From Pseudomonadota bacterium (GTDB lineage Bacteria > Pseudomonadota > Gammaproteobacteria > Steroidobacterales > Woeseiaceae), in NCBI GenBank assembly GCA_039821645.1, contig JBCBNU010000008.1, positions 1,576 to 65,575 of the forward strand: a DNA stretch of 64,000 nucleotides. Reading direction: 5' to 3'. The notes below the pieces were generated by a model, which ran no database searches, was not told the origin of the DNA, and was given only the letters and a program-made list of their open reading frames with translations. Shown one piece after another: positions 1,105 through 64,000 of the stretch (position 1 is its first letter; every line of letters begins with the position of its first letter). Made by a program: the position numbers and the translations under genes.

Positions 1105-1164
1105 GTGAAGCGTTCAGGGGTGGATGCGGTGAAACTCCGAGGGAAAGAAACCCCGGGAGCAGTC

Positions 1165-23945: not shown

Positions 23946-23976
23946 GAGTCAGGCGGGTTAATCGCCCGCCTGACTC
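23946..23976. terminator. Perfect 12-bp GC-rich hairpin between convergent genes (GAGTCAGGCGGG-N7-CCCGCCTGACTC)
   Basis: Read directly from the sequence. The right arm encodes the last 6 codons (ESQAGD) of gene 23958-25964 and the loop contains its stop codon. There is no U-tract on either side. Confidence 0.45.
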
Positions 23977-49165: not shown

Positions 49166-49264
49166 TGTATGTCGCTTCAGGCAGCGCCTCGGCGAGTGTG
49201 ATCACAATCGCTGTTCCCGTTTTTCGCAGATGCTAGCATTCACGTGGCGCAGGTAGGAGCACAA

Positions 49265-50365: not shown

Positions 50366-52239
50366 TCGCGGACTCTGTTTTTCCAGCGCGGTGAGCGATA
50401 GAGCTCATCGACGAACGCGATATTTCCAGACTCAGCATAGGTGTGGATGCCAATGGCGCCGCTTCTGGTGCGAGGTGGAATATGCTCAAGCAGAACCTCT
50501 CGATAGTCGGTGGTCGACAGCGCTGTGACCTCCATGAAATTCAATCCGTAGCCGTAGCGATAGGTGCAATCCTGAGTCGGTCGAATCAGACGACCGTTTT
50601 TTTCGATCATTGCACCGCCCGGGCGCGAGGTCCTGCAATCGGAGACCACTGGGTTGAGTGGGTGCGCCTGCCACGGACCCACAAGATCCTCCGCAAAGTA
50701 GAGAAAACACTCATCCTGGGAAGACACCGCAGGGTGCGACTTCACGTTGGCGAACATCCACCACAGGCCATCACGTCGCAGCAGCGTCGCGTCCGACGCG
50801 TCAATGTCCTGCATTAGCACCGAGTGCAATGTCCACTCGTCGGGAAACGCGGTCGCCTTGTATAACTCGATCGTTTGGTTGGCTGACGTTTCTGGCAGCA
50901 TGTAGTACTCGCCACTGACGTCGAGAATCTGCGGATAGGAAAGGTGATAAGGGCGCTGCAATATCATTCGTGTGCCGCCGTCAGGCCTGCCGTTGGCATC
51001 GAGGGACACTCGGGATAGATGCCCGAGTTTACGCCGGTCACAGTACTCCTCAAAAAACAGGAATCGTGATTCACCGCTGACATGAATAAACGGGTCTGCC
51101 CGATAAATCCGGTCGGGGTTGTGCTGGACTTCGGCGAGTCGTGTCTCGCCGGTCAGCGCAAATGGTGTGGCCCGACGCAATCGCCATCGCTGCTCAAACA
51201 AATTGTTATCGACAAGTGCAATCGCTTTGCGAAAAACAGCGCGCACAACGTACAGGCTGTATGCGAGTGCGCCAGGGTGTGGCGCCGAGAAATTGCGCTC
51301 GAAGGATTGGTCGACCCTGGTGCGACAATCAGCGAAAAAGGCATTCGCCCCCAGCTGGCGCATACGCTGGACTGCCCGAGGGATACCAAACAGCATCTTC
51401 CAGTAATGGCGAGAGATGTTGTCTCTTGTCGAGTGGCGACTGGTTGCCATCCACGACTCCGCCAGAACGATTGGTGCGCGATCGGCAAACGTGACTGCGA
51501 GAGTGGATCGCGTCAGTGGCGCACCTTTGAGCACCGGCCAGAATCCAGCAGGGTAAGCCTGTGCGATGCCGGCGGGTGAACCGAGTAAAGACCAGACACC
51601 AAATCTGGCACTGGTAATCACTTCGGAGGGAACCGCTCGCAATCCACAATGCACAACCACATCGACATTCAGATCAACCAGGTGCTTGCGATCTGACTCC
51701 GAAAATGTGCCCGGAAGATCGACCAATACCTCACTGTCGAGATCCGCATCGCAACGACGCCAGGCGTCGGCGAAAACGAGGTTCCGATCAACGAGCTTTC
51801 GGTAGCTCGCCATCAAACGCCGTCGCATGCCACGACGCAAGCGCCCGTCCTGCCATCGAGGCTTGCTGCCTGGAGTCCGTCCGCCACGTCTGCGATCGTG
51901 CGCAATCATCACACCAGCGATTTCGACGCCATCATCCTGCGTGAAGCAATCCAGCAACTCGGCCACCCATGCAGGGATGGCGTATCGATCTAGAAAGAGT
52001 GCAACACGGGTTGGTAATTGTGATTCTTGTTCGCTCAACGCGTTCAAATCGCAGGTAGCTGAATGCCCAGAGTCTAATCGCTTCACGTGGGCGGCACGAG
52101 TCCGACCGGAGTGTCGGTTTCCCAACGTGGTTGTCTGCATTCTGCGACAGACCGAAGAGCCCGCTGCTTTCAGAGGGTTGCGCAGTGCATCTCGGCAAGC
52201 GGTGACCGGCCTGTTTCTGTCTGACGACACTTCGCCCAT
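50362..52239 (-). CDS. Two-domain protein: degenerate formyltransferase-like N-terminal domain plus GINT1/GH43-like beta-propeller-like C-terminal domain; start uncertain
   Basis: The N-terminal half resembles the formyltransferase fold (DVVVHCGLRAVPSEVITSARFGVWSL), but the catalytic N..H is not evident. The C-terminal half contains ADPFIHVSGESRFLFFEEY...YPQILDVSGEYYMLPETS...FPDEWT. The first ~85 codons are Arg-rich and probably not translated. Confidence 0.5.
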   Translation of the reverse strand: MGEVSSDRNRPVTACRDALRNPLKAAGSSVCRRMQTTTLGNRHSGRTRAAHVKRLDSGHSATCDLNALSEQESQLPTRVALFLDRYAIPAWVAELLDCFTQDDGVEIAGVMIAHDRRRGGRTPGSKPRWQDGRLRRGMRRRLMASYRKLVDRNLVFADAWRRCDADLDSEVLVDLPGTFSESDRKHLVDLNVDVVVHCGLRAVPSEVITSARFGVWSLLGSPAGIAQAYPAGFWPVLKGAPLTRSTLAVTFADRAPIVLAESWMATSRHSTRDNISRHYWKMLFGIPRAVQRMRQLGANAFFADCRTRVDQSFERNFSAPHPGALAYSLYVVRAVFRKAIALVDNNLFEQRWRLRRATPFALTGETRLAEVQHNPDRIYRADPFIHVSGESRFLFFEEYCDRRKLGHLSRVSLDANGRPDGGTRMILQRPYHLSYPQILDVSGEYYMLPETSANQTIELYKATAFPDEWTLHSVLMQDIDASDATLLRRDGLWWMFANVKSHPAVSSQDECFLYFAEDLVGPWQAHPLNPVVSDCRTSRPGGAMIEKNGRLIRPTQDCTYRYGYGLNFMEVTALSTTDYREVLLEHIPPRTRSGAIGIHTYAESGNIAFVDELYRSPRWKNRVRD

Positions 52240-52637: not shown

Positions 52638-53978
52638 ATGACACGCCGTATTCTCAGTCAGACAAAGCGATTTCCCACTCTGCTCGCGGTAGCGGGTTGT
52701 TCACTTGCTCTCGCGGCCTGCTCGGGCAGCGAAGATGCAACCGAGAACACGATTTTGGACGGTGGTGCTGGACCCACACCGACTCCAGTCGACAGCCAGC
52801 CGCCTCAGATCAGCATTTTGACGCCCGACGACGACGGGCGTGCCGAGACCAGCTCGACGGTTATTTCGCTGACCGGGCAAGCCTCGGACAATGTAGATGT
52901 TCAGAGCTTGGGATGGTCGAGCAATCGCGGCGATAGCGGTGACATCACCGTATCGTCCAACTGGATCAGTCCGCAAATATCGGTCTTCTCCGGCAGCAAC
53001 GTGATCACGGTGACCGCCGAAGACGCCGCTGGCAACACCGCCAGTGACACGATCACGATTGTGTTCGAGCCCAATTCGGCGCCGGAACCCGCGATGGGGA
53101 TGGTGAGCTTCAATCCTGATCTCACCAACCCGATCCGACTCGCAGACAACACGATTTCACGGCAGTTCGCCTATTTGTTTTTCGAACCCAATTCAGAGTG
53201 GATTGATCGCGGCGTCAGCCGAGTGGAGTTTTCGTGCTGCCGCTCGGTTACCGGCACGCCCGAACCACATTTGCCGACCGTCACCGACAGCGCGGCGCCG
53301 TGGGCGTTACCCATCGACCTCGTTCAGTTCGCAGCGGGCACGCGACGCGAGCTCTCCATCGATGTGATTTTCGCGGACAATGGCGAACGAGTGACGCAGC
53401 GAGTCGAATTCAACCTGGCGACCGCGAGTGGCGGCAACAACCGTGCACCGATCATCAGTGGCAACGCGCCTGGGACGGTCGTTGCGGGCGAAAACTACAG
53501 CTTCGTGCCGACGGCGAGCGATCCGGATGGCGACATGCTGACCTTTAGCGTGAGCAACCTGCCCCGCTGGGCATCGTTCGATCCGGTGACCGGCGAGATT
53601 TCGGGCACACCGGCCAACGGTGATGTTGGTCTGTTTCGTAATATTCGAATTCGCGTCTCCGATGGCATCAATACCGTGTCGCTGCCGCGTTTCGATGTGC
53701 AAGTCGATGCGGTGGCACTGCGTTCGGTGACGCTTAACTGGACGCCACCGACGCGTCGCGAGGACGGCTCACCGCTCAACGGCCTTTCGGGATATCAGGT
53801 CTACTACGGCCAGGTATCGGGCGTTTATCCGAACCGCAGATCGGTCAACGACGGCTCGATTTCGAGCTTCACGCTCGACAGCCTCCAGCCGGGAACGTGG
53901 TACGTAGCGATCACCTCGATAGACAACAACGGACTGGAAAGTGCGCTGTCGAATGAGGTCGCCAAACAGGCGCAATAA
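52638..53978 (+). CDS. Lipoprotein with Ig-like domains, a dystroglycan/cadherin-like 'putative Ig' domain and a C-terminal fibronectin type III domain
   Basis: The lipobox is SLALAAC. The Ig-like segment is NVITVTAEDAAGNTASDTITIVF. The putative-Ig segment is NRAPIISGNAPGTVVAGENYSFVPTASDPDGDMLTFSVSNLPRWASFDPVTGEISGTP. The FN3 segment is VTLNWTPPTRREDGSPLNGLSGYQVYYG...WYVAITSIDNNGLES. Confidence 0.8.
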   Translation: MTRRILSQTKRFPTLLAVAGCSLALAACSGSEDATENTILDGGAGPTPTPVDSQPPQISILTPDDDGRAETSSTVISLTGQASDNVDVQSLGWSSNRGDSGDITVSSNWISPQISVFSGSNVITVTAEDAAGNTASDTITIVFEPNSAPEPAMGMVSFNPDLTNPIRLADNTISRQFAYLFFEPNSEWIDRGVSRVEFSCCRSVTGTPEPHLPTVTDSAAPWALPIDLVQFAAGTRRELSIDVIFADNGERVTQRVEFNLATASGGNNRAPIISGNAPGTVVAGENYSFVPTASDPDGDMLTFSVSNLPRWASFDPVTGEISGTPANGDVGLFRNIRIRVSDGINTVSLPRFDVQVDAVALRSVTLNWTPPTRREDGSPLNGLSGYQVYYGQVSGVYPNRRSVNDGSISSFTLDSLQPGTWYVAITSIDNNGLESALSNEVAKQAQ

Positions 53979-54181: not shown

Positions 54182-54619
54182 ATGATGTCGACAACCACCG
54201 CACACGGGTTGTTTTGTGCCCGTGCAACGCTCGTCGGCGCTGCAGCGCTGCTGTCCGTTATGCTTGCCGCCTGTGGTGGCGGTGGCGGCGGTAACCCGGA
54301 TAGCCGCACGGTTAGCACAGGCTCACCGAGCGGCTCCGGTGGTACCCCACCGCCGACGAACGGAAACATTGAGGTCGCGTGGACCCCGCCAACGGCGAAG
54401 GTCGACGGAACGGCGCTCACCGATCTTGCGGGGTATCGTTTCTATCTCGGTCGCGAGAGCGGGCGATACAGCGAAATGGTTCCGGTCAACAATCCTGGGC
54501 TCTCGCGATTGGTTCTGGAAAACCTCGAGGGCGGTACGTGGTTCGTGGCAATGACCTCCATGCGTCGCAATGGCGTGGAGAGTGATCTATCTAACGAGGT
54601 GGCAAAATCCACCAACTAA
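54182..54619 (+). CDS. Small lipoprotein consisting of a Gly/Pro linker and one FN3 domain (paralogue of the C-terminus of 52638-53978)
   Basis: The lipobox is VMLAAC. The FN3 segment is IEVAWTPPTAKVDGTALTDLAGYRFYLG...WFVAMTSMRRNGVESDLSNEVAK, which parallels VTLNWTPP...WYVAITSIDNNGLESALSNEVAK in the larger protein. Confidence 0.75.
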   Translation: MMSTTTAHGLFCARATLVGAAALLSVMLAACGGGGGGNPDSRTVSTGSPSGSGGTPPPTNGNIEVAWTPPTAKVDGTALTDLAGYRFYLGRESGRYSEMVPVNNPGLSRLVLENLEGGTWFVAMTSMRRNGVESDLSNEVAKSTN

Positions 54620-54623
54620 AGCC

Positions 54624-55760
54624 CTAGTCAACCGCATCCTGCAGTACGCAGACGGTCTGGTCGATGTCGACATTCTTGACGTGCGAGTGAATCGGCAGCG
54701 TCAATATCCGATCCGCAAAGTCGCTAGCACTTCCCAGCGAATCCTGCACAACGACATGTTCGTTAGTGCCGGGAATCTCATTCACAGGACGCGGATATAG
54801 CCGAGTTGCCCCGAGCCCAAGGCGCTCAAGGCGATTGAGTGCAAACTCCCGAGCCTCAGATGAAGGCGCCAAGACGGTGTAACGCAACAGGCTGCGTGAT
54901 GCATCCGCTTTGCACTCGCTGGGCAAGTCGCGCCATTCGGGCACTGACGAGAGACCTGCGGACCATAAGGCGCGCCGTGCTTCGAAATCAGTTGCCCGAA
55001 GATGTTGCGCTATGCCTGTGGCCACCGCAGCAATGCCGCCAGCATCCAACGTCGCCAGGCGGTGGAGCGGGTGGAAAACCGTCTCGCCGATGCTGAGACC
55101 CGGCAGCCGGAGCAACACCGAGTAGGCGCGAGGGTGAATCAACAGATTGTAGGCGAGACGCTTCAGCGCCGAGGGCGCCGAAACAGCGCCGCTCGTCGCA
55201 ACGCCTTCCACAGACGCTTCCAGCGCACTATCAGCAACCCATAGCGCACCGCCGACCAAGGCGCTGGCCGGTTTGCCACGGCCGAAGCTGAATACCAGTG
55301 CATCCGAGCAGCGCATCGCGATATCGCTTGGCGGATATGCCTGGCAGTGGTCATAAACCAGAGGCAGACCCACCGAGTCACAAAGGACACGCAGATCAGC
55401 CAGACGCTCGTCGATGCCTTGGAAATTCACGGCAACCAACGCGACCGCGTTCGGGCTCAGCGCACCCTTAAGCGCGGTCAGCGACATCCAGGGTCGGTCG
55501 CGCTCAAGGTCAACAAGTACCGCCTTAGCACCTGCAAAAGCGATAGCGCTAACGACATCGGGGCAAGTGTAGGCTGGCATGATGATTTCAGGTGTCCCTA
55601 TCACCGAGCTGCGCTGGATGATTGCCTTCAGGATTGCGGCGAGCGCCATTGTCCCCGAGCCAAAGAAACTGAGATCACGCCCTGCCAGTGGCTCCAGGTC
55701 CGCACCGCCGCTTGCCGGTATCGCCTCGCCGACAGGCCTAAGCGCGCGCAAGTGCTTCAC
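54624..55760 (-). CDS. DegT/DnrJ/EryC1-family PLP-dependent sugar aminotransferase
   Basis: The small-domain layout includes GSGTMALAAILKAI and IIMPAYTCPDVVSAIAFAGAKAVLVD. The Schiff-base Lys context is FSFGRGKP. Confidence 0.7.
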   Translation of the reverse strand: MKHLRALRPVGEAIPASGGADLEPLAGRDLSFFGSGTMALAAILKAIIQRSSVIGTPEIIMPAYTCPDVVSAIAFAGAKAVLVDLERDRPWMSLTALKGALSPNAVALVAVNFQGIDERLADLRVLCDSVGLPLVYDHCQAYPPSDIAMRCSDALVFSFGRGKPASALVGGALWVADSALEASVEGVATSGAVSAPSALKRLAYNLLIHPRAYSVLLRLPGLSIGETVFHPLHRLATLDAGGIAAVATGIAQHLRATDFEARRALWSAGLSSVPEWRDLPSECKADASRSLLRYTVLAPSSEAREFALNRLERLGLGATRLYPRPVNEIPGTNEHVVVQDSLGSASDFADRILTLPIHSHVKNVDIDQTVCVLQDAVD

Positions 55761-55763
55761 CCG

Positions 55764-56375
55764 TCATCGATCGCCTCGGCCGAACCATCGAACCAGCCGG
55801 CGACGGATACGCTTCAGGATTGGCTCTGCCCGCCGTGATTCGGCGGTATTCGCGCGTGGAAATGGTTTAGCGGGCACCTGATGCCCAAGAAAGCCGCATA
55901 ACGCTTGCCATCCATCTCCCGCAGTCAAGTCCATGATCAGCAAATCGTCGGGCCGGTCTTTAAAGTACTCACGAACTTCTTGCCCGTGTTGCCGGTAACG
56001 TTCGAGGTAAATCGATTCATTACCCTCTGGAGCACCTGCATCGGCACCGTAGATCATCTTGCGCATGGGAGTTGTTCGGGTACCAAAGTGCTTCACCTGG
56101 CTTCGAACCCATCCGTCAGCATCACGCTCGGTCAGGACAAATTTGCTGCCGGGATAACGCGCATCCAGCTCTTTGAAAACGATCGGCCAAGGGTTGTCCT
56201 GAAACGCATCGTACTCGGTAACGGCCTGCTCGATGATCGACCAGAGGTTCTCGGCAATATCCGGATCATGCACGCCGTTCGGCCCGGTTACTCGATACCC
56301 GAGTTCGCGCAGCGCCACCGTCATACTGGAGGTGCCGGTCTTGTGAAACCCGATGCAGAAAACCTTGGCCTTCAT
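55764..56375 (-). CDS. Sulfotransferase (P-loop-like, Sulfotransfer_4-type)
   Basis: The PAPS 5'-phosphosulfate-binding loop lies at the N-terminus: KVFCIGFHKTGTSSM. The ATG at 56375 has GGGGAG upstream. The track start at 56465 adds 30 Arg-rich residues. Confidence 0.7.
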   Translation of the reverse strand: MKAKVFCIGFHKTGTSSMTVALRELGYRVTGPNGVHDPDIAENLWSIIEQAVTEYDAFQDNPWPIVFKELDARYPGSKFVLTERDADGWVRSQVKHFGTRTTPMRKMIYGADAGAPEGNESIYLERYRQHGQEVREYFKDRPDDLLIMDLTAGDGWQALCGFLGHQVPAKPFPRANTAESRRAEPILKRIRRRLVRWFGRGDR

Positions 56376-56388
56376 CACTCTAGCTCCC

Positions 56389-57537
56389 CTACCGCACCGA
56401 CGGCTTCCACGTCGTGATTCGCTTCCCGCGAACAAACTGAATCGCGGCGAGCCCGATTGCCGCATTCACCTGGGCAAAGAAGAACACGACGCGCATCAGC
56501 CCACTTTCACGCAATACGGGGGCAACCCAGGCCATCAATGCCGCGCCGTAGAACAGCAATTGCGCGACCAAGGCCAGCAGGACCAAAGGGGACTTCGGTA
56601 CAAGCAATGTCGAGACAGCCAGTGCGAGGAGAAACCACGGGACCAGCCAGCGCATGATCTTGTGACTCCACACTTGAAACGCGAACCAACCCATCTTCGG
56701 GAAGCTCAACACCACAGGAGCACGCGCCACTGCAGTCATCCCTCGAATCACCGTGCGCACCTTGCGCTGAAACTCTTTCGCAGGATTCTTGATGTCTTTG
56801 TAGACGCCGATCACCGCCGGACTGGACACCGCGACGAGACCCTGGCGGGCGCAATTGAGTGCCGTGTTGAAGTCGCTGGGCGACACAATATCCCAGTCAC
56901 GACACACGCTTGCTCGCGCTGCGAAAAAAGAGCCACTCAGTCCCACCAGCCCGGCCAATCGAGACTCCTGCGCCCTCAGCCACATCTCATAGCGTACGTA
57001 CAATCCTTCGCCGGCCACCTCACCATCATCGGTGATAAAGCGGTCTTCGCTCGAAACCGCGCCGACGGTTGGGTCACGAAATACGTCGACGAGATTGCGG
57101 ATGGCTTCCACCGGAACCGACGTTGCTGCATCCGAAAACACGAGGATGTCGCCTGTCGCCGCCTTGACCGCAAGCGATTGCGCGTACTCTTTACCAAGAT
57201 GCTCGTCGGCGCGAACCAAAGTGACCCCTTCAGTGCGGCTGACAATCTCATCGGTTTCATCTGTCGAACAATCCGATGCGACGAGAATCTCAAATCGATC
57301 ATCGGGATAATCGATAGCGAGGCTATTGGCGAGCTTCTCCTCGATACGGGCCGCTTCATTGTGCGCCGCGATAATCAATGTCACCGAAGGTAGCGCGTCT
57401 TCCGTTGCAGCACCGGGCTCGCGCTTCGGCAACAACATCAGAATCAGGGGGTACAGGAAGTAGCTATAGACGGCACAAATCGCCAAAAAAACCACCAGCG
57501 CATCGGTCCAAAATGTACTCATCTGCGTGTACTCCAA
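56389..57537 (-). CDS. Membrane-embedded family-2 glycosyltransferase (TM - GT2 - multi-TM, synthase-like topology)
   Basis: The GT2 core is VTLIIAAHNEAARIEEKL...ILVASDCSTDETDEIV...VFSDAATS. There is one N-terminal TM segment and 3-4 C-terminal TM segments. QRKVRT lies at the position where processive synthases carry Q(Q/R)xRW. Confidence 0.85.
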   Translation of the reverse strand: MEYTQMSTFWTDALVVFLAICAVYSYFLYPLILMLLPKREPGAATEDALPSVTLIIAAHNEAARIEEKLANSLAIDYPDDRFEILVASDCSTDETDEIVSRTEGVTLVRADEHLGKEYAQSLAVKAATGDILVFSDAATSVPVEAIRNLVDVFRDPTVGAVSSEDRFITDDGEVAGEGLYVRYEMWLRAQESRLAGLVGLSGSFFAARASVCRDWDIVSPSDFNTALNCARQGLVAVSSPAVIGVYKDIKNPAKEFQRKVRTVIRGMTAVARAPVVLSFPKMGWFAFQVWSHKIMRWLVPWFLLALAVSTLLVPKSPLVLLALVAQLLFYGAALMAWVAPVLRESGLMRVVFFFAQVNAAIGLAAIQFVRGKRITTWKPSVR

Positions 57538-58400
57538 TGGGACAAATCACGCTCGATCAGTTTTCCAAGCAGGGCCACTTCCGGTGCAAACTCTGCGCGC
57601 AGTTGCGCTGCGAATTTCGGATCGCGTTGCGGCGTGCTGACGCCGCGGCGGTTGAATGCCCGCAACCGCTGTCCCAGCCCGAGCGACTGAATACCGAGCA
57701 GGCGCTTTGCGCCGCTGAGGCTTCGGCTCACCCACGCCGGTGGTCTGCGCACAAAGTGCTCCAGAGCTCGCGACTTATGCCCCTTTCGCGCGTTGTAAGC
57801 AGAAGCGTCCTCAATCGTGTGAGACGGCAGATCAAGGAAACGAAGTACTTCGGAGTACTGCTGCACAGAATCTGCCTTCAGATCCTCGAACACAACAAAG
57901 TGGATTTGTTCTCTTGGCACACGAGACAGGAGACGTTCGACCTGGGATCCCAATGCACACGCTGCCCGATAGTTTCGAATGCGCCCCGGCTCGTTCGGTT
58001 GCGCCATCCAGGCACGCTCCGGCGATGCCTCGGACTCTGACATGTTGTAGAGAAACTGCGAATGCAGCGAAAAAAACATATCCGCGGGATCACGCAGCAT
58101 CACCACTAGCTTTGCATCCGGCCGAAACCGCAGAATGTTGTCAACCGCTGTCTCAGAAAACAAATACCAGGTGGATGCCTCCCCCATCCGAGTGGCAGAA
58201 GGATCGGCGTTTTCAAAGAGTGCAAGGTAATCCCGTTCTGTCTGCACCGTCCGCATCTTCGGAAGATCCGTCGAAAAGAAGTTTGGCTCCTTGGGCTTGC
58301 ACACAAAAACGTTGGGATGCCGATCGAGGTAGACCCACATCGAGCTCGTACCAGACTTGGGCGCGCCGATGATAAAGAACTCGGGTTTCAAACTGCCCAC
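57519..58400 (-). CDS. Sulfotransferase (Sulfotransfer_1/3-type)
   Basis: The 5'-PSB loop is FIIGAPKSGTSSM. The 3'-PB region is VVMLRDPADMFFSLHSQ. Confidence 0.85.
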   Translation of the reverse strand: MGSLKPEFFIIGAPKSGTSSMWVYLDRHPNVFVCKPKEPNFFSTDLPKMRTVQTERDYLALFENADPSATRMGEASTWYLFSETAVDNILRFRPDAKLVVMLRDPADMFFSLHSQFLYNMSESEASPERAWMAQPNEPGRIRNYRAACALGSQVERLLSRVPREQIHFVVFEDLKADSVQQYSEVLRFLDLPSHTIEDASAYNARKGHKSRALEHFVRRPPAWVSRSLSGAKRLLGIQSLGLGQRLRAFNRRGVSTPQRDPKFAAQLRAEFAPEVALLGKLIERDLSHWSTRR

Positions 58401-58409
58401 CGATTCGCC

Positions 58410-59243
58410 CTATAAAATTTCATAACCAAAGTGACGAAGGGAGTCACCAGCAACTCGATTCACTATCGCGATTTGTTCAGGAGTCAGCTTCTCGATGCTG
58501 ATTTGATTCATGTTTCGAACCGCTTCTTTGCGTTCATGAATCGCCAGCGCCTCCGGACGATAGAAACCCTGCGTCGTATTGAGACCCGCAAACTCGGCGA
58601 CCCGCGCCAGCGCCGCTTCAGGGTCTTCGCACAGATCCTCATACTTCAGCCACATGAGGTTATCGAGGTGTTCAGCATCCTCGAGCAAGACGTCGTTGCC
58701 ACGCGCCCACTGACGCGCTGACATTTCGATTGGCCAGCCTTCATCGAAGTGCTTCGGATCCCCCTTACGGGTAATGCCCTCAGCCACGGCGTACCCATTC
58801 CTGACCAGCGCCACGAAGTACGCATCCTTGAAGTGCGCCTGCAGCCACCGAGTCCGAGCGGAATTGGGCGGTGACTTCTCCATGAACACTTCGCCCTGCC
58901 CGCGCGCGCGCATGCCCCACTCGCGTTTGATGCGCACCGCGTCGGGTCCGGCATCGTGTTCGGTGAGACGGAAAAGGGACTCTTTTTCAACCCACATCCG
59001 TGGCACACCGATCGCATAGTCCTTGACGAGCTGATCGGTGATGAAGTGTCCTTCGGTCGGCAGCGAACGTATTTCCGGGTGGCGAGACAACAATTCAGCG
59101 AGGAGCGTGGTCCCCGAGTTGTAGCAACCGACAAGAAACAACCATCTCTTCGGCGATGGAACAGGCGTCAGCGCAATTCGCACCTCTCGCCACATATTGC
59201 CAAGGCTTTCCCGGAATACCGATTTGAGTCGTGTCCCAGCCAT
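58410..59243 (-). CDS. Sulfotransferase (Sulfotransfer_3-type)
   Basis: The 5'-PSB-like loop is LFLVGCYNSGTTLLAELL. The second motif region is YFVALVRNGYAVAEG. Confidence 0.75.
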   Translation of the reverse strand: MAGTRLKSVFRESLGNMWREVRIALTPVPSPKRWLFLVGCYNSGTTLLAELLSRHPEIRSLPTEGHFITDQLVKDYAIGVPRMWVEKESLFRLTEHDAGPDAVRIKREWGMRARGQGEVFMEKSPPNSARTRWLQAHFKDAYFVALVRNGYAVAEGITRKGDPKHFDEGWPIEMSARQWARGNDVLLEDAEHLDNLMWLKYEDLCEDPEAALARVAEFAGLNTTQGFYRPEALAIHERKEAVRNMNQISIEKLTPEQIAIVNRVAGDSLRHFGYEIL

Positions 59244-59355
59244 AACGCGCGCACAACGCCCCTCATAAAAAACTCGCGAACTTTAGCCTATCCGCGCAGC
59301 GCCCGCTATGTTACAAAGCGCGTTTTTATAAGGTTCGAAAAGCGGAACGACGCGC

Positions 59356-60198
59356 ATGTATATCAGCGAAAAACTCGCGTTCGTCGAACTGCATAAGACC
59401 GGCGGGTCGCATATCGGTCGTTGGCTCGCGAAAACCTTACCGGGCGAGCAGATCGGCAAACATAATCGTCTCGCACCGGAGCACTATGACAAATTCGTCG
59501 TTGGCTCCGTACGTAACCCCTGGGATTGGTACGTCTCGCTCTGGGCCTACGGCTGCTCATCACGCGGCAGCGTCTGGAAGCAAACAACAGACGCCCCGAA
59601 CTGGGCCTACTATCGACGCTCTCTTCACCGCGAAATGGGCCGGCGACGGACGGGGCCAGCAATCGCTATACGTCAATGGTTCAACGATCGGCGTAAACCG
59701 CGAAGTGAGTGGCAGCGCACCTATAGTGACTCGAGCAATCCCGCTGCTTTCCAACGCTGGCTCAAGATGATGCTCAATCCCGGCCGAAGTCTTGATCTGC
59801 GCGAGGGCTACGGGTTTTCCTGGGTAGCCGAGCGGGCCGGCTTGATGAGCTATCGATACATCAAATTATTCACCAGCATCGGCGACGCGCTCTACCAAAC
59901 GAGGCATCAAGAGCCCATCGATGTGTTAATTGATCGTCTGGGATTTGTAGACGCGTTTGTGCGGACCGAGCAACTGGAGCCCGACCTGGTCGCTGCCATT
60001 GAGACTGCGCAGATCGGACTATCGTCCGAACAACGCACGGCAATTCTCGAATCCGGCGCACAGAAGACCAATACCTCTGATCGTCGATCAGCAGGCTTCT
60101 ACTACGACCCGGCAACGATCAAGCTCGTTGCAGAGCGCGAGCGCGTGATTATTGAGCGTCACGGTTACACACCGCCCGAACTTGAGAGCGCCCTATGA
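59356..60198 (+). CDS. Sulfotransferase (Sulfotransfer_2-like)
   Basis: The N-terminal loop is AFVELHKTGGSHI. The RNPW motif region is VVGSVRNPWDWYVSLWAY. Confidence 0.7.
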   Translation: MYISEKLAFVELHKTGGSHIGRWLAKTLPGEQIGKHNRLAPEHYDKFVVGSVRNPWDWYVSLWAYGCSSRGSVWKQTTDAPNWAYYRRSLHREMGRRRTGPAIAIRQWFNDRRKPRSEWQRTYSDSSNPAAFQRWLKMMLNPGRSLDLREGYGFSWVAERAGLMSYRYIKLFTSIGDALYQTRHQEPIDVLIDRLGFVDAFVRTEQLEPDLVAAIETAQIGLSSEQRTAILESGAQKTNTSDRRSAGFYYDPATIKLVAERERVIIERHGYTPPELESAL

Positions 60199-60965
60199 GT
60201 TTTCTCAAAGTCGCCTACGAGCGCTTGCTCGATGAGGAAACCCGGAAACGGATTTACAAGTGGCGGCACCCGGAACACTTCCAAAGAATGCGCGAACAGG
60301 TGAATCCCTCCGAGAAGGGTAATTTTTCACTAAAGCCATTCGACGAGCATCAATGCATCTTCGTGCATATCACCAAATCGGCGGGCACATCGGTGGCCTT
60401 GGCACTATTCGACCACCTGCCCTATCACCACACTGCACGGGACTACCGCGTGATCTACGGTCGAGACACCTTCGAGCGTTACTTCAAGTTTGCGTTCGTT
60501 CGTAATCCGTGGGATCGCCTGTATTCAGCGTACTCATACCTTCGCGGTGGAGGTTGGGATGAACACGATCAAGTATGGGCTGAAGAGCACCTGGCCCGCT
60601 TCACATCGTTTGAAGAATTCATACTTACGGCATTCTCTTGGCAGTGGCTCAGCCGACATCTGCACTTCAAGACTCAAATCGACTTTATCGGTGATCGACG
60701 ACAACAACCGATGATCGACCATCTAATGTACTTCGAAACGCTGACGACAGACTTCAACCATCTCGCACAGAAGCTGTCGCTTGACGCGCGCCTTGAACAC
60801 CGAAACCCCTCTGCCCGGGCTGGCTATAAAGAAGTCTACACGCCCGAGATGATCGCGGTGGTAGAACGGGTTTATGCTGACGACATCCGGACCTTCGGGT
60901 ACGACTTCGAAGGCATCGTGAACAGAACTCGGGTTGTCGACGGCGCCTGGACTCGCGATGACTGA
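60195..60965 (+). CDS. Sulfotransferase (Sulfotransfer_2 family)
   Basis: Motifs present are IFVHITKSAGTSV and FAFVRNPWDRLYSAYSY. The start overlaps the upstream sulfotransferase stop. Confidence 0.8.
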   Translation: MSFLKVAYERLLDEETRKRIYKWRHPEHFQRMREQVNPSEKGNFSLKPFDEHQCIFVHITKSAGTSVALALFDHLPYHHTARDYRVIYGRDTFERYFKFAFVRNPWDRLYSAYSYLRGGGWDEHDQVWAEEHLARFTSFEEFILTAFSWQWLSRHLHFKTQIDFIGDRRQQPMIDHLMYFETLTTDFNHLAQKLSLDARLEHRNPSARAGYKEVYTPEMIAVVERVYADDIRTFGYDFEGIVNRTRVVDGAWTRDD

Positions 60966-62085
60966 CTCCCGGCCTGGGTTCCTACTGGTTGCGAATTGGC
61001 CATCGGATGTAGGCTTTGCCTGGTGGTTGATGGAGAGCTACTGGGCAGCACTGGCCAACCACTACCACCCCGACTTCCGAATGGTACTGGCGTTTCCGAA
61101 AATCAACGAAATTCCAGCGGTGATTCGCAATGCGCCGATCGACACAGTCGAATACGCCTTCGGGCGGAACGCGATCGGCCTCGACCTTCAGTTCCTGCAG
61201 CGGCACCGGATTCGGGAGATTTACTTTAGCGACCGCCCAAACATTGACGCTCGTTACTTGCGCTATCGACGCGCTGGCGTCCAACACATTATTACGCACG
61301 ATCACACCCCCGGACTGCGCACGCCTCCGACGGGCCTCAAACGAGTCTTGAAATGGTCAAGGGCACGAATCCCGGGGCTTGTTTGCGATGCTGCGATCGG
61401 CGCTACGGAGTTTGTCCGACAGCGCACCATCGACACGAATCTCTTGCCAGCCGAAAAGTGCTTCGCCGTGCCGAACGGACTTCCGGCAGCGCAAGCACTA
61501 ACGCCGCGGAATCCGGTCGAGGAATTCGCGCTCGACCCTGATGCGGTGCACATGGTTATGACAGCGAGAGCCAATCCCTACAAAGGTCTACGGTTTGTAC
61601 TCGACTGCCTTGCCAGGTTTCGACGTACCGAATCCGTCGACCTTCAGTTCACGCTTTTGGGAGATGGGCCCATGCTGAACGAATTGATGACGCTGGCCGC
61701 CGATCACGATATCGCTGACGCGTGCCACTTCCCAGGCTATGTAGACGGCGTCAGTGCATTGCTGCCCGGCTTTGATTTTGCGATTCATCCGTCTAAGGGT
61801 GAAGTCGGATACTCACTCGCGATCCTCGAGTACATGCGAGCGGGCTTGGCGACGCTCGTGCCCGACAACCCATCCGTTTGCGGCGCAACCACCCATGGAC
61901 AAACGGGTCTTATCTTTCGTGAAGGCGACCAGGACGCTTGCATCGCGGCGATGAAAGCCATGGCGTGCGATCCAGCCTACCGCTCCGAACTCGGTGAGGC
62001 AGCAAGAATCGACGAAAGACGCTACTCACTAGCTAACGCACACAAGCGACTACTGGAAATTGTCGAAACGACACTCTCGCGTTAG
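60958..62085 (+). CDS. GT4-family (GT-B fold) glycosyltransferase
   Basis: The C-terminal domain carries the E-x7-E region: PSKGEVGYSLAILEYMRAGLATLVPD...GQTGLIF. The ATG at 60958 overlaps the upstream stop (ATGACTGA) and is preferred over the track's TTG at 60934. Confidence 0.85.
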   Translation: MTDSRPGFLLVANWPSDVGFAWWLMESYWAALANHYHPDFRMVLAFPKINEIPAVIRNAPIDTVEYAFGRNAIGLDLQFLQRHRIREIYFSDRPNIDARYLRYRRAGVQHIITHDHTPGLRTPPTGLKRVLKWSRARIPGLVCDAAIGATEFVRQRTIDTNLLPAEKCFAVPNGLPAAQALTPRNPVEEFALDPDAVHMVMTARANPYKGLRFVLDCLARFRRTESVDLQFTLLGDGPMLNELMTLAADHDIADACHFPGYVDGVSALLPGFDFAIHPSKGEVGYSLAILEYMRAGLATLVPDNPSVCGATTHGQTGLIFREGDQDACIAAMKAMACDPAYRSELGEAARIDERRYSLANAHKRLLEIVETTLSR

Positions 62086-63557
62086 TGCCGACCAAGCTTC
62101 GCCAAAAGCGCGATACGCACCGATTTGAGATCGTCGCGGGTTGCAGGGTCTCGCTCCAGCATCCACCAAAGTGCTCCAAGCAGGAAAAGCCCCAGCGCGC
62201 ACTTGCCCGCCGCACTGACCCATAGCGACATCTCCGCAAGAAAAAGTATGTCCAAGGCAACGACTGAAGCGCCGATGACGATAAACCAGAAAGCTGGGAA
62301 AAGCCGCACTGAGATATCAAACGTGCGCTTTGCTACTGATGCTGTGATCAACAACATAAGAAACGCAGCGGCCACTGTCGCGTAGGCTGCCCCAAGATAG
62401 CCAAGCGCGGGGATCATTGCGATGTACATCACGGTCAGCAGCGCAGCAGATCCATACTTCAGTGTCGCAATGAGGTAGGTGCGCTCCGAAGCAAGGAAAC
62501 TGACATTCAAGAACAGTGCGAGCTGCTTCAGAACGACGGAAAACGCTAATGGTGGGACTGCAAGTGAGGCCGTATGAAACGCCGGGTCTGCCATCACCCG
62601 GATAACGATGTCCGCGAACAAACTGATCCCGGTAGCCATAACCACTAGCGCTGCCGAAAGCAGGGCATAGACCGACCGGTAGACCGGAGCGCCCCGATCA
62701 TCGCGACGCAGTAGCGCAAAACGCTCAGTCTGCCACCATTGATTGAACGGTTGCCAAATCAGGATCATCACAAGAGTGCTGAATCGCGCTGCAAGGTCAT
62801 ACAACCCCACCTCGGACAAACCACCGAAATAGCGAATCATGAACCGATTGGCAAAAGTGACGTAGACCGCTGCTGCACTGCCTACCCACAATGGCCAGCT
62901 GAAGCGAATCAACCGTCGTGTTAGTGTCTTGCGGATGCGCCATCCACCCGTTTGGTAGATTGTGTAGACGCCCAAGACCAGACCGAAACCAGATGATGAC
63001 AACACTGTACTAGCGACCACACCGGCAACGCCCCATTCAAGAAACACGACAAACCAGATGTTTAGCGACAAAGCGACGACAAGCTTTGTGAGTGAAACCG
63101 CCATAAACAAGAAGGGTTTGTCGCGCAGTCGAATGTAAACCAATGCGTAGTTTTCGATGGCGACTGTGATCAGGGTGATGCCGTACAGCGCAACGAAGTG
63201 CCAGAGCGCGATATCGGCAAGGAATGCGTTCGCAAGCGGTCGTGACATTGCTGCGATCAGCAAGGCACCAATTCCGCTGGCGGTGATGGTAATCGCTAAT
63301 GCAGTGCCGATGACCGTGCCGCGCTCCTTTTCGTCATCGTGCTCGTAGTAGAACTTTGGAATCGCAGAGGCAAACCGGGCACCGAGAACGAGCTCGAAAA
63401 TCGAAATCAACAGCGCCAACATCGCGACGATGCCGTAATCGCTTGGCGCGAGATAGCGCGTGTAGATGGGCAGCATCAAAAAGCCGACGATCTGGCGAAT
63501 GATAGCGCCGGCGGAATAGATCCCGAGGTGTTTGGCAGCGTTCTTACGACGACCCAT
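62082..63557 (-). CDS. Wzx-like oligosaccharide flippase (MOP/polysaccharide biosynthesis protein family)
   Basis: The 491-aa protein has about 12-14 TM segments. The N-terminus (AKHLGIYSAGAIIRQIVGFLMLPIYTRYLAPSDYG) is typical of Wzx/RfbX. Confidence 0.8.
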   Translation of the reverse strand: MGRRKNAAKHLGIYSAGAIIRQIVGFLMLPIYTRYLAPSDYGIVAMLALLISIFELVLGARFASAIPKFYYEHDDEKERGTVIGTALAITITASGIGALLIAAMSRPLANAFLADIALWHFVALYGITLITVAIENYALVYIRLRDKPFLFMAVSLTKLVVALSLNIWFVVFLEWGVAGVVASTVLSSSGFGLVLGVYTIYQTGGWRIRKTLTRRLIRFSWPLWVGSAAAVYVTFANRFMIRYFGGLSEVGLYDLAARFSTLVMILIWQPFNQWWQTERFALLRRDDRGAPVYRSVYALLSAALVVMATGISLFADIVIRVMADPAFHTASLAVPPLAFSVVLKQLALFLNVSFLASERTYLIATLKYGSAALLTVMYIAMIPALGYLGAAYATVAAAFLMLLITASVAKRTFDISVRLFPAFWFIVIGASVVALDILFLAEMSLWVSAAGKCALGLFLLGALWWMLERDPATRDDLKSVRIALLAKLGRH

Positions 63558-63562
63558 ATCGC

Positions 63563-64000
63563 CTATTCCTGGGAAGAGGTTTGCGATCGGCGAATGTGTT
63601 CGTTATAGATAGCGGTCATTTGTTTGCCGATCACCTCACTGGAGAAACGACTCTCAACCCAATCACGTCCGGCAACCTGCCATTCCTGCCAACGGTCAGG
63701 GTGAGCCAAGACCCGCTTCAACGCATCAGCAATCGCTTGCGCGGATCGATCTTCAATCAAAAAGCCCGCTCGACCGTCGTCGATGCACTCGGGAATACCC
63801 CCGGTTCGCGTTGCGATGACCAACAAGCCCGACGCCTGCGCCTCCTGCAACACCACGCCTTGTGTTTCTTGCCAGCGGTCTGCAGATGCTCCAAGGGACG
63901 CCAACACCAGCACATGGCAACGCTCGAAGACCGCACGCAAGTCCTCATCCACCAGAAGCCCGTGGAAAACCACTTCATCTGTCAATCCGCCGGACTCAAC
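63563..64000 (-). CDS. GT1/GT4-family glycosyltransferase, C-terminal part only (5' end lies beyond the window)
   Basis: The reading frame stays open to the window edge. The GT-B C-terminal domain is VLVLASL...ETQGVVLQEAQASGLLVIATRTGGIPECIDDGRAGFLIEDRS. Confidence 0.8.
   Translation of the reverse strand, partial: VESGGLTDEVVFHGLLVDEDLRAVFERCHVLVLASLGASADRWQETQGVVLQEAQASGLLVIATRTGGIPECIDDGRAGFLIEDRSAQAIADALKRVLAHPDRWQEWQVAGRDWVESRFSSEVIGKQMTAIYNEHIRRSQTSSQE

Follow-up and report, generated by a model that had tools for sequence, protein, structure and literature searches.

Genetically defined pathways for sulfated bacterial polysaccharides are uncommon, as the first-pass annotation of the DNA considered here had remarked, yet examples exist, namely the loci described for synechan (PMC8205485), Vibrio KMM 8419 (PMC11641403), Cobetia (PMC11766843) and Pontiella (PMC7356697). 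The synechan xss cluster encodes Wzx/Wzy and two sulfotransferases and yields a sulfated exopolysaccharide in which the stoichiometry of sulfate agrees with the number of genes (PMC8205485). The study on Vibrio treats the presence of PAPS-supply genes in the cluster as a hallmark of sulfated capsular polysaccharide loci (PMC11641403). The sulfated polymers of marine bacteria are known by their chemistry, while their genes have rarely been assigned.

We analysed a 64-kb stretch of DNA (the window) from an uncultured bacterium that is known from MAGs only. Five genes with sulfotransferase motifs occupy positions 55764-60965, a span of 5.2 kb, and profile searches identify the genes around them as encoding a DegT-like enzyme, a membrane GT2, two GT4s and a Wzx-type flippase (Table 1). 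This agrees with the interleaving described in the first-pass annotation, and all five of the PAPS-loop motifs that it quoted are present in the translations. Because five sulfotransferases of different families lie within a slime-polysaccharide cluster, it is very probable that the organism produces a surface polysaccharide bearing multiple sulfates. We think it likely, taking the locus type, the product and the mechanism proposed below together, that positions 49.2 to 64 kb of the window form the distal arm of a large exopolysaccharide locus, one that depends on Wzx/Wzy and belongs to the exosortase (XrtA/PEP-CTERM-associated) type. Judging from relatives, the full locus would measure about 45 kb.

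Table 1. Features of the polysaccharide locus, in window coordinates.
Feature	Position	Strand	Basis
Acetyltransf_6 (FemAB-like GNAT) gene	49244..50365	+	Pfam PF13480, 46.8 bits
625-aa protein with GINT1_N-like domain	50362..52239	-	Pfam PF24793, 125 bits, residues 379-584
Lipoprotein with Ig-like, He_PIG and fn3 domains, lipobox LALAAC	52638..53978	+	Pfam, translation
Small lipoprotein, lipobox VMLAAC, fn3-like domain	54182..54619	+	Translation
Divergent DegT/DnrJ/EryC1-family PLP enzyme	54624..55760	-	PF01041, 82 bits
ST4, Sulfotransfer_4-family sulfotransferase, 203 aa	55764..56375	-	PF17784, E=1.3e-36, 126.9 bits vs cut-off 22.8
Membrane GT2 glycosyltransferase, 382 aa	56389..57537	-	PF00535, 69 bits
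ST3a, Sulfotransfer_3/_1 sulfotransferase	57519..58400	-	PF13469 2e-17, PF00685 1.9e-13
ST3b, Sulfotransfer_3 sulfotransferase	58410..59243	-	PF13469, 6.8e-20
Divergent intergenic region, 112 bp	59244..59355	.	Between minus-strand block (ST3b to DegT) and plus-strand block (STx, ST2, GT4)
STx, member of a ~280-aa Pfam-less family	59356..60198	+	Motifs, remote homology
ST2, Sulfotransfer_2-family sulfotransferase	60195..60965	+	PF03567, 2.1e-13, 51.5 bits vs cut-off 22
GT4 (Glycos_transf_1) glycosyltransferase	60934..62085	+	PF00534 + PF13692, ~74 bits
Wzx-type flippase (Polysacc_synt), 491 aa	62082..63557	-	PF13440 + PF01943
GT4 C-terminus, 145 codons, cut by window end	63563..64000	-	PF13692 + PF00534

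The left edge of the locus is probably the Acetyltransf_6 gene. Directly left of it come the housekeeping gene gltX and a tyrA-like gene, a relative (L010) has an Acetyltransf_6 gene at the equivalent position, and in an Alteromonas locus (L006) such genes adjoin DegT. The position of the GINT1_N-like gene is kept in L010 and partly in L002. The larger lipoprotein shares 95% amino-acid identity with its counterparts in L003 and L004 (dN/dS 0.03). The smaller one, present in L002, L003 and L004 (dN/dS 0.10), gave no Pfam or NCBIfam match, and its fn3-like domain is a paralogue of the C-terminal part of the larger protein (~49% identity to residues 364-443). From the gene layout, the divergent intergenic region is presumed to hold the promoters; a consensus promoter scan of these 112 bp found none.

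The DegT-like protein is a putative sugar aminotransferase. Its match is limited to profile positions 46-204 of PF01041, the N-terminal half, and it contains an SFGRGK163 motif; against NCBIfam equivalogs it reaches at most 53 bits, where the cut-offs are at least 375. In related loci its gene always lies beside a 380-aa GT2 gene. The GT2 of the window has hydrophobic windows between residues 6 and 351, with segments near both ends, and is 53% identical to its orthologue in Alteromonas sp. S167. The complete GT4, which has a weak match to TIGR03088 stp2 in NCBIfam, comes after ST2 in all related loci. Orthologues of the flippase are 90-98% identical in three MAGs and 36% identical in Alteromonas sp. 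S167, and the GT4 gene cut by the window end is entire in L001, L002 and L008 (422-430 aa in relatives).

The sulfotransferases had been attributed to several different families, and four of the five (ST4, ST3a, ST3b and ST2) indeed score far above the Pfam gathering cut-offs, in three families: Sulfotransfer_4, Sulfotransfer_3/_1 (twice) and Sulfotransfer_2. The Sulfotransfer_3 scores of ST3a and ST3b are 64.6 and 72.7 bits against a cut-off of 27. A profile check set beforehand, on whether most of the five would fail, was therefore passed by four, while STx matched no profile and is tied to sulfotransferases by remote homology and a non-significant structural likeness. For the Pfam-supported genes, the closest structures by sequence are solved sulfotransferases (searches with ST4, ST3a and ST3b). 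ST4, whose start was placed at the ATG at 56375 (a longer ORF to 56465 would run into the GT2 gene), carries K11 within the PAPS-loop motif FHKTGTSS and is nearest to SgdX2 (8y9p, 6e-10) and the schistosome oxamniquine sulfotransferases. By sequence, ST3a belongs to a heparan-3-O-sulfotransferase-like clade, with matches to 3rnl (4e-34), to HS 3-OST-5, -1 and -3A (5e-8 to 1e-6) and to NDST; it has K15 in APKSGTSS, GE74AS, and R103...S111 in LRDPADMFFS. ST2, whose start overlaps the stop of STx (ATGA), carries TKSAGTS (K61) and RNPWDRLYS (R103...S111), and these three numbered residues are invariant among 8 orthologues.

When dN/dS was computed against two genomes, L003 and L004 (dS 0.5-2), all five genes fell between 0.03 and 0.12 (ST4 and ST2 0.04-0.06, ST3a 0.08-0.12, ST3b 0.03, STx 0.09-0.11), indicating strong purifying selection on each. 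None of the five proteins has a TM-like segment, which fits the use of cytoplasmic PAPS, and none has a signal peptide.

The first-pass annotation expected the locus to continue past the window end, and in close relatives it does so for ~30 kb, where a complete Wzx/Wzy exopolysaccharide system of the exosortase (XrtA/PEP-CTERM) type is encoded. This core lies outside the window and is known from relatives only. In a 96%-identical relative, the continuation encodes Wzy_C, LMW-PTP, four more GT4s and two deacetylases. Four XrtA-system proteins there exceed their cut-offs, namely FemAB (TIGR03019, 373 bits vs 260), deacetylase (TIGR03006, 409 vs 276), tyrosine kinase (TIGR03018, 233 vs 231) and chain-length determinant (TIGR03007, 455 vs 279), and a Poly_export gene comes next. 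Further along, an 85%-identical relative encodes the export protein TIGR03027, PrsT, an exosortase, PrsK and the priming transferase TIGR03013. Related loci also occur in Alteromonas, Marinimicrobium and Cellvibrio.

Two of the five genes raise the question of whether every one of them sulfates the polysaccharide. STx is a real, conserved gene by its sequence (at least 443 homologous proteins), and in each of the contexts analysed, those of the window lineage and of seven further loci, a member of its family lies within an EPS locus. It is nevertheless conceivable, if unlikely, that STx is a P-loop-like non-sulfotransferase, for example a kinase-like protein or a structural partner of the Sulfotransfer_2 enzyme, which would leave four sulfotransferases in the window. 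Searches of Pfam, NCBIfam and PDB sequences gave no match to STx, and its AF2 model (pLDDT 94) has no significant Foldseek match (best E 0.31, TM 0.37-0.40), although sulfotransferases make up 12 of the 15 top matches. BLASTP aligns it with ST2 at E=1e-6, and hhalign does so over the full length at 9.8e-5 and 2.7e-4, with a probability of 42-58%, in an alignment that takes in the C-terminal N-x-S-x-R motif; the ST3b family gives 0.046 only, and out of register. Against the non-sulfotransferase reading, its motifs HKTGGSH (K14) and RNPWDWYVS (R53...S61) hold the residues expected for PAPS binding in the 5'-PSB loop and the 3'-PB motif, and K14, H36, R53-N-P-W-D-W-Y-V-S61 and N239/S241/R243 are invariant in 30 homologues of 44-69% identity. 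Furthermore, STx directly adjoins ST2 in the window, in L002-L004 and in six of seven further loci examined, even where the relative orientation of the pair has changed. STx is thus probably a sulfotransferase distantly related to Sulfotransfer_2. ST3b falls by sequence in a different clade from ST3a, one that is TPST/CurM-like, and its GCYNSGTT motif has Asn (N42) where the P-loop usually carries Lys/Arg. Its family (151 representative clusters at E<1e-30) has near-invariant N42, E64, E122 and K123 and an invariant R148 among 26 representatives of 29-57% identity. With the family profile, protein-tyrosine sulfotransferases 1 and 2 are matched at 1.5e-24 and CurM, a polyketide sulfotransferase, at 1e-19; the OLS polyketide sulfotransferase is also among the best solved relatives of the family, and these nearest relatives sulfate protein tyrosine or acyl-ACP rather than sugars. 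Some of the enzymes, notably ST3b and perhaps STx, might therefore act on protein tyrosine, a lipid or a small molecule, with fewer glycan sulfates than genes. Tyrosine targets could be the two conserved fn3-domain lipoproteins of the locus or exosortase substrates, since exosortase systems process secreted PEP-CTERM proteins, one of which is encoded in the Marinimicrobium locus. We give this little weight: in a family as broad as Sulfotransfer_3 the nearest solved structure does not tell the acceptor, ST3b sits in an operon-like block between GT2 and other sulfotransferases, an equivalent gene (277-284 aa) recurs in EPS loci L010, L011 and L012, and the sulfotransferases are cytoplasmic whereas the lipoproteins are exported.

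A stronger contender, though still one we doubt, is that the genes form a variable decoration cassette of alternative or partly redundant enzymes, gained and lost to diversify a surface antigen, for instance in escape from phages or grazers, with a variably or lightly sulfated product. The 96%-identical genome L002 has lost the interior of ST3a (about 57639-58362, ~725 bp) and the 62%-level relative L010 lacks ST4 and ST3a in an otherwise identical architecture, so some of the five are dispensable. The extension in close relatives adds one or two sulfotransferase genes (six or seven in total in one of them), a seventh sulfotransferase-like gene being present in L008 and absent in L009, and Alteromonas loci have STx and ST2 alone where L012 has five. 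The set thus varies between close relatives, and not all five can be core. On the other side, all five are under strong purifying selection where present, and their origin in different families, not in recent duplication, speaks for distinct specificities. This alternative is compatible with a multiply sulfated exopolysaccharide and alters the degree of sulfation, not its kind. As to the polymer class, it seems improbable that the product is an LPS-linked O-antigen or a capsule and not a released exopolysaccharide. Wzx/Wzy loci so composed can yield any of the three, and against the 'O-glycosylation ligase, exosortase A-associated' model the Wzy_C-domain protein scores 126 bits, below the cut-off of 188; but relatives carry a PCP-2a-like chain-length determinant, a tyrosine autokinase, LMW-PTP and a Wza-like Poly_export protein, and several of their proteins pass XrtA-system EPS equivalog cut-offs, a set characteristic of EPS/CPS export and not of O-antigen.

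For the multiply sulfated exopolysaccharide, we propose that a polyprenyl-phosphate glycosylphosphotransferase, seen in a relative, would prime the lipid carrier, and that the GT2 and GT4 enzymes would assemble a hetero-oligosaccharide repeat unit at the cytoplasmic face, to which the DegT-like enzyme may contribute an amino sugar. We infer that all five soluble sulfotransferases are active on sugars, each using cytoplasmic PAPS to sulfate one particular position of the lipid-linked unit or a precursor before flipping by Wzx. Wzy would then polymerise the flipped units, and the chain-length determinant, tyrosine kinase, LMW phosphatase and Poly_export proteins would govern length and export of a multiply sulfated, strongly anionic extracellular polysaccharide. 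Gain and loss of individual sulfotransferase genes may make the sulfation pattern differ between lineages. At the level of the genes the first-pass annotation holds: five sulfotransferase-type genes, from several families, lie in a polysaccharide locus. Its heavily and regiospecifically sulfated glycan would be a putative product, and the amino sugar depends on a divergent protein far below all NCBIfam equivalog cut-offs.

The search of adjacent sequence that had been recommended recovered Wzy_C, the Wza-like Poly_export protein, the chain-length determinant and the tyrosine kinase in relatives, but not cysDN/cysC. None of the PAPS-supply genes cysDN, cysC and cysQ occurs in the 64-kb window or in the L008 and L009 extensions (roughly 30 kb), in contrast to the Vibrio loci, which carry such genes in the cluster. 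One relative does link this locus type to PAPS metabolism: in Cellvibrio (L014), genes for APS kinase and for an Inositol_P (CysQ-like) protein directly adjoin the Sulfotransfer_2 gene.

The polysaccharide locus has its left edge at ~49.2 kb of the window and, judged by ORF coordinates, comprises ten closely packed genes between 54.6 and 64.0 kb, with five sulfotransferase-type genes inside 5.2 kb. Four of these are named after their Pfam families (ST4, ST3a, ST3b and ST2) and the fifth, STx, belongs to a Pfam-less family. Gaps or overlaps between genes of the minus-strand block, from the DegT-like gene to ST3b, amount to 20 bases or fewer; a divergent gap of 112 bp separates this block from the plus-strand genes STx, ST2 and GT4, whose stops overlap the following starts. 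Because scanning 54-64 kb for promoters and terminators returned fewer consensus matches than shuffled sequence, the transcription units can be read from gene spacing alone. Three long plus-strand ORFs (56353-57393, 57378-58040 and 57740-58372) lie antisense to Pfam-supported genes and were taken as non-genes. All five sulfotransferase motifs quoted in the first-pass annotation were found in the translations.

Genes of the sulfotransferase-rich stretch, with whole-protein Pfam scores for the sulfotransferase families
Gene	Position	Strand or block	Pfam family	Score vs gathering cut-off (bits)	E-value
DegT-like enzyme	54624-55760	minus block			
ST4	55764-56375	minus block	PF17784 Sulfotransfer_4	126.9 vs 22.8	1.3e-36
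Membrane GT2	56389-57537	minus block			
ST3a	57519-58400	minus block	PF13469 Sulfotransfer_3	64.6 vs 27	2e-17
ST3a (second family)			PF00685 Sulfotransfer_1	50.9 vs 22	1.9e-13
ST3b	58410-59243	minus block	PF13469 Sulfotransfer_3	72.7 vs 27	6.8e-20
STx	59356-60198	plus block			
ST2	60195-60965	plus block	PF03567 Sulfotransfer_2	51.5 vs 22	2.1e-13
GT4	60934-62085	plus block			
Wzx	62082-63557	minus			
Second GT4, C-terminus only, interrupted by the window end	63563 onward	minus			

Left of the 49.2-kb edge are unrelated housekeeping and metabolism genes, with gltX and a tyrA-like gene immediately adjoining the edge (Pfam); the locus opens on the right with an Acetyltransf_6 gene, followed by a GINT1_N-like gene and a pair of fn3 lipoprotein genes. 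Gene order at this edge is the same in L010, a more distant Pseudomonadota MAG locus. The GINT1_N-like gene (50362-52239, minus strand), which L010 shares at its locus edge, encodes 625 aa in which only this domain is recognizable; GINT1_N takes its name from a plant enzyme, glucosamine inositolphosphorylceramide transferase.

Sulfotransferase membership was assigned when the whole-protein score exceeded the curated Pfam gathering cut-off, and ST4, ST3a, ST3b and ST2 all lie well over it. The earlier claim that the genes come from several different families is correct, since both Pfam families and nearest solved structures set them apart. In a PDB sequence comparison, ST3a is nearest to the bacterial sulfotransferase 3rnl (4e-34) and also aligns over ~200 residues with the heparan sulfate (HS) sulfotransferases 3-OST-1, -3A and -5 and with NDST (E 5e-8 to 1e-3). 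The ST3b family is nearest to the tyrosylprotein sulfotransferases TPST1/2 (1.5e-24, ~230 residues) and then to the CurM sulfotransferase, and ST4 is nearest to SgdX2 and the schistosome oxamniquine sulfotransferases; for the ST2 family no solved relative was detectable by sequence. None of the five is named by any NCBIfam model, the sole match being a fragment of ST3b to NoeE at 27 bits against a cut-off of 500.

The P-loop lysine is present in ST4 (K11), ST3a (K15), STx (K14) and ST2 (K61). The Arg/Ser pair of the 3'-PB motif is found in ST3a (R103...S111), STx (R53...S61) and ST2 (R103...S111), and a candidate 3'-PB motif, TERDADGWVRS, is readable in the translation of ST4. ST3a also carries a GE74AS motif, which we take to resemble the catalytic Glu motif of heparan 3-O-sulfotransferases. 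No membrane segment was found in any of the five proteins, so they should be cytoplasmic, where PAPS is found. In contrast, the animal HS 3-O- and N-sulfotransferases and TPST are Golgi type II membrane enzymes, while the bacterial proteins here are predicted to be soluble and cytoplasmic. Acceptor specificity is not transferable from the animal enzymes to ST3a or ST3b.

ST3b departs from this pattern in its loop, GCYN42SGTT, where Asn42 takes the place of the canonical Lys/Arg; TPST has Arg at that position. R148 of ST3b is also without a Ser at +8. Such a loop might suggest a decaying pseudo-enzyme. However, Asn42 is nearly invariant among 26 representatives at 29-57% identity, as are E64, E122 and K123, while R148 is invariant in the same set; the subfamily is large, with 151 representative clusters at E<1e-30, and ST3b has a dN/dS of 0.03. 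The near-invariance of Asn42 and this low dN/dS rule out decay and point to the Asn-type loop being a conserved trait of the subfamily. E64 aligns with a Glu of TPST1 that we take to be the catalytic base. The Sulfotransfer_3 subfamily with the GCYNSGTT loop still aligns well to the tyrosylprotein sulfotransferases.

STx proved harder to place. Neither Pfam nor NCBIfam gave it a match at E<=0.01, and searches of the PDB by phmmer and with a family profile gave nothing significant (E=0.92, on the 3'-PB motif only), so that no curated profile or solved sulfotransferase identifies it. Its AlphaFold model is confident (pLDDT 94), and Foldseek returned nothing at E<=0.001 (best E 0.31, TM 0.37-0.40); 12 of the top 15 hits were sulfotransferases, all non-significant. 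Because the sequence-only and Foldseek searches were non-significant, the assignment of STx depends on profile-profile comparison and motifs. Against the adjoining ST2, BLASTP gave E=1e-6 and hhalign gave full-length alignments at E 9.8e-5 and 2.7e-4, with probabilities of only 42-58%; in these alignments the 5'-PSB, the 3'-PB and the C-terminal NxSxR motif all stay in register. The control comparison with the ST3b family aligned out of register (hhalign E=0.046).

The STx family has at least 443 homologues of ~280 aa, almost all annotated as hypothetical, and a dN/dS of 0.09-0.11. In an alignment of 30 members at 44-69% identity, the invariant residues are K14, within an HKTGGS loop; G34-K-H36-N; R53-N-P-W-D-W-Y-V-S61; and N239, S241 and R243. 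These residues resemble what would be expected of a 5'-phosphosulfate loop, of a catalytic base (a candidate only), of a 3'-phosphate motif and of the C-terminal motif in Sulfotransfer_2-type enzymes. With remote homology and aligned PAPS-binding motifs as moderate support, we infer that STx is probably a sulfotransferase of a new Pfam-less family, distantly related to PF03567.

The source belongs to an uncultured Pseudomonadota ('Chromatiales') lineage. The region is present in three MAGs at 81-96% DNA identity, and these relatives bear out the suggestion that the locus runs beyond the window end. In the 96%-identical relative (L002 and L008), the sequence past that point encodes a GT4, an unknown gene, Wzy_C and LMW-PTP; a sixth sulfotransferase (Sulfotransfer_3, 1e-34); an stp1-like GT4, a CapK-like ligase, an ATP-grasp enzyme, an stp2-like GT4 and a deacetylase; a 228-aa gene with a faint Sulfotransfer_2 match and another GT4; and then an XrtA-system FemAB protein, a deacetylase, an outer-membrane protein, a tyrosine kinase, a chain-length determinant and finally Poly_export. 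The next 10 kb in the 85%-identical relative (L009) encode PrsT and PrsK, an export protein, an exosortase and TIGR03013, the glycosylphosphotransferase for priming, together with a PGM_PMM gene of the phosphoglucomutase/phosphomannomutase family.

Four of the XrtA-system families of the 96% relative exceed NCBIfam cut-offs. Taking L008 and L009 together, the markers over cut-off in one or the other are PrsK, PrsT, TIGR03013, TIGR03027 (export), TIGR03007 (chain-length determinant), TIGR03018 (tyrosine kinase), TIGR03006 (deacetylase) and TIGR03019 (FemAB); none of these eight families lies inside the window. Matches to XrtA models were sub-threshold for the stp1, stp2 and O-ligase-like genes of the relatives. 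The L009 exosortase (477 aa) scored 146.6 bits against a cut-off of 105.6 for the general model TIGR02602, and 182 against 208 for the XrtA-specific TIGR03109. Genes of wzy, wza and wzc type, which the first-pass annotation proposed to look for in the adjacent sequence, were found in the relatives as Wzy_C, Poly_export TIGR03027 and the PCP TIGR03007 with a tyrosine kinase, and a priming transferase (TIGR03013/03025) in a relative completes the Wzx/Wzy set. Wzx lies in the window, and the other components of the pathway were seen only in the 85-96% DNA-identical genomes. Given that exosortase, Wzy and export genes lie next door in these relatives, the 49.2-64 kb part of the window would be one arm of a ~45 kb exosortase-type Wzx/Wzy exopolysaccharide (EPS) locus.

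PAPS-supply genes (cysDN/cysC), which had been thought worth seeking nearby, were found by Pfam neither in the 64-kb window nor in the L008 and L009 extensions, and a Pfam scan of the larger ORFs in 1-54 kb gave no cysD, cysN, cysC or cysQ. An ABC transporter was likewise absent from 49-64 kb of the window, from L008 and from L009.

Inside the EPS locus, the two adjoining lipoprotein genes (52638-53978 and 54182-54619) are strongly conserved, with dN/dS of 0.03 and 0.10, and the smaller protein is paralogous (~49% identity) to the fn3-like domain with which the large Ig/He_PIG protein ends. PEP-CTERM sorting signals on these two proteins were ruled out, as neither protein ends in the motif and both have lipoboxes.

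We also examined seven contexts of the STx family beyond the window lineage: Alteromonas sp. S167, A. pelagimontana, a Pseudomonadota MAG, a Marinimicrobium-type contig, a JGI metagenome contig, a Pseudomonadales MAG and a Cellvibrio MAG. STx lies in an EPS locus in all seven, as it does in the window lineage, and four have an exosortase within 10 kb; a PEP_exosort_dom protein was called in the Marinimicrobium locus. A Sulfotransfer_2 gene directly adjoins STx in six of the seven, in varying relative orientation. That adjacency is kept despite the change in orientation argues for STx and the Sulfotransfer_2 gene being functionally coupled. A pair formed by a DegT-like gene and a 380-aa GT2 also recurs in the related loci, as does a GT4 after ST2. 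In the Cellvibrio locus (L014, Cellvibrio sp. MAG DQHS01000170.1, 17636-19099), APS-kinase and Inositol_P (CysQ-like) genes lie directly beside the Sulfotransfer_2 gene. This putative module for dedicated PAPS supply and PAP removal, found among the loci examined only in this EPS locus with an STx homologue, ties the locus type to PAPS metabolism.

Sulfotransferase content varies among these loci, from two genes in Alteromonas to five in the JGI contig and six or seven in the window lineage. A clean deletion in the 96% relative (L002 15185-15194) has removed the interior of ST3a (window 57639-58362, ~725 bp) together with the P-loop, a presence/absence polymorphism within a species-level group, and both ST4 and ST3a are absent from L010. 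A faint seventh sulfotransferase (228 aa) lies between a deacetylase and a GT4 gene at L008 13309-13995 and is absent at L009 15822-17937. The genes beside the ATP-grasp gene also differ between L008 and L009. Compared with Alteromonas, ST3a and ST3b take the slot of an exosortase and a GT4, and ST4 sits between the DegT-like gene and the GT2. Given the variability of ST3a, ST4 and the seventh gene, STx and ST2, along with a TPST-like Sulfotransfer_3 gene, seem to form the core, and the remaining sulfotransferases seem to be accessory.

Several genes elsewhere in the window deserve mention. A 1077-aa protein (20703-23936, plus strand) consists of 12 PASTA domains (Pfam 539 bits), an array that is unusual in a Gram-negative, since such domains typically belong to Gram-positive PBPs and PknB kinases. 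Odd domain combinations were listed for a 668-aa protein (23958-25964, minus strand), in which a copper type II monooxygenase C-terminal domain is combined with an AhpC/TSA-redoxin domain, and for a GH3-family (acyl-acid amido synthetase-like) protein (7184-8824, plus strand). A tyrosine recombinase (1105-2259, plus strand), which belongs to the phage integrase family and carries a SAM-like domain at its N-terminus, lies ~47 kb from the EPS locus, and no link between the two was seen.

The best-supported reading of the locus is that a lipid-linked repeat unit would be sulfated in the cytoplasm in a PAPS-dependent manner, flipped by Wzx, polymerized by Wzy and exported via PCP/OPX to yield a multiply sulfated EPS. 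From gene content, we infer that the acceptors would be sugars, that all five enzymes are probably active and that the product may be heavily sulfated. The main points that count against this model are that the visible locus has no PAPS genes, that ST3b has an atypical loop and that the statistics of STx are weak. The first-pass observation of a sulfotransferase-rich polysaccharide locus is confirmed, and its interpretation is supported at the level of genes: this is an exosortase-type, predicted sulfated-polysaccharide locus whose sulfotransferases are unusually many and diverse and include a Pfam-less family.

A broader proposal, to which we give slightly less than an even chance, is that exosortase-type EPS loci of environmental and marine Gammaproteobacteria are a widespread, undescribed genetic route to multiply sulfated GAG-like EPS. 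Sulfotransfer_2 and STx would be the core pair, to which lineages would add further sulfotransferases, including the Asn-loop TPST-like clade, to give lineage-specific sulfation codes. If true, this would account for unassigned sulfated 'GAG-like' polymers of sludge granules and biofilms, and cultured carriers such as Alteromonas and Marinimicrobium leave the idea open to direct test. Sulfated polysaccharides serve as heparin-like drugs, antivirals and hydrocolloids, and in ecology they bear on the cycling of carbon and sulfur in the sea, on the binding of metals and on the matrix of biofilms; their bacterial producers are characterized mostly by chemistry, with few defined genes. The locus would also offer candidates for enzymatic sulfation, namely a set of polysaccharide sulfotransferases that are soluble and probably regiospecific and that include a new family.

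Viewed beside known systems, the locus is a combination of two known things, with its chemistry predicted and the kind of system not new. Among marine Gammaproteobacteria, sulfotransferase-bearing loci and sulfated polysaccharides of solved structure are known from Vibrio sp. KMM 8419 (PMC11641403) and from Cobetia marina KMM 1449 (PMC11766843). Their loci are of the ABC-transporter (kps-type) capsule type with cysNDC/cysQ in the cluster (PMC11641403, PMC11766843) and hold one or few scattered sulfotransferase genes, whereas the five here are clustered in a Wzx/Wzy and exosortase system in which PAPS genes are not visible; the Vibrio/Cobetia combination of an ABC transporter with in-cluster cysDN/cysC/cysQ was not found. 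Pontiella sulfatireligans F21 makes sulfated, mainly N-sulfated, exopolymers, and its putative GAG-like EPS cluster holds GT2, GT4, a DegT-type transaminase and one PF13469 sulfotransferase (PMC7356697). Unlike the window lineage, it belongs to another phylum (Kiritimatiellae) and has a single sulfotransferase, and an exosortase link is not reported there. As for the XrtA EPS loci defined by NCBIfam/TIGRFAMs models, the relatives match the marker families, but the curated models name none of the five sulfotransferases.

The best-characterized analogue, compared here by gene content, is the synechan xss cluster of Synechocystis sp. PCC 6803, a plasmid-borne Wzx/Wzy EPS cluster regulated by XssQ/R/S, with many glycosyltransferases and two cytoplasmic sulfotransferases of different subfamilies (PMC8205485). 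Its product has been shown to be sulfated, with a sulfate stoichiometry equal to the number of sulfotransferase genes (PMC8205485). The xss cluster is cyanobacterial and without exosortase/PEP-CTERM machinery, which the window locus type has in relatives; furthermore, its two sulfotransferases compare with five in the window and six or seven in the relative, including Sulfotransfer_4 and the Pfam-less family. In the literature searched, exosortase and sulfotransferase occur together in only two papers; one of them is the synechan paper, and its main text is silent on exosortase. That paper stated that sulfotransferase genes were not found in other bacterial EPS clusters (PMC8205485). The predicted genes of this locus and its relatives show otherwise, and suggest that sulfotransferase genes from different families, two to seven per locus, are a common part of exosortase/PEP-CTERM EPS machinery.
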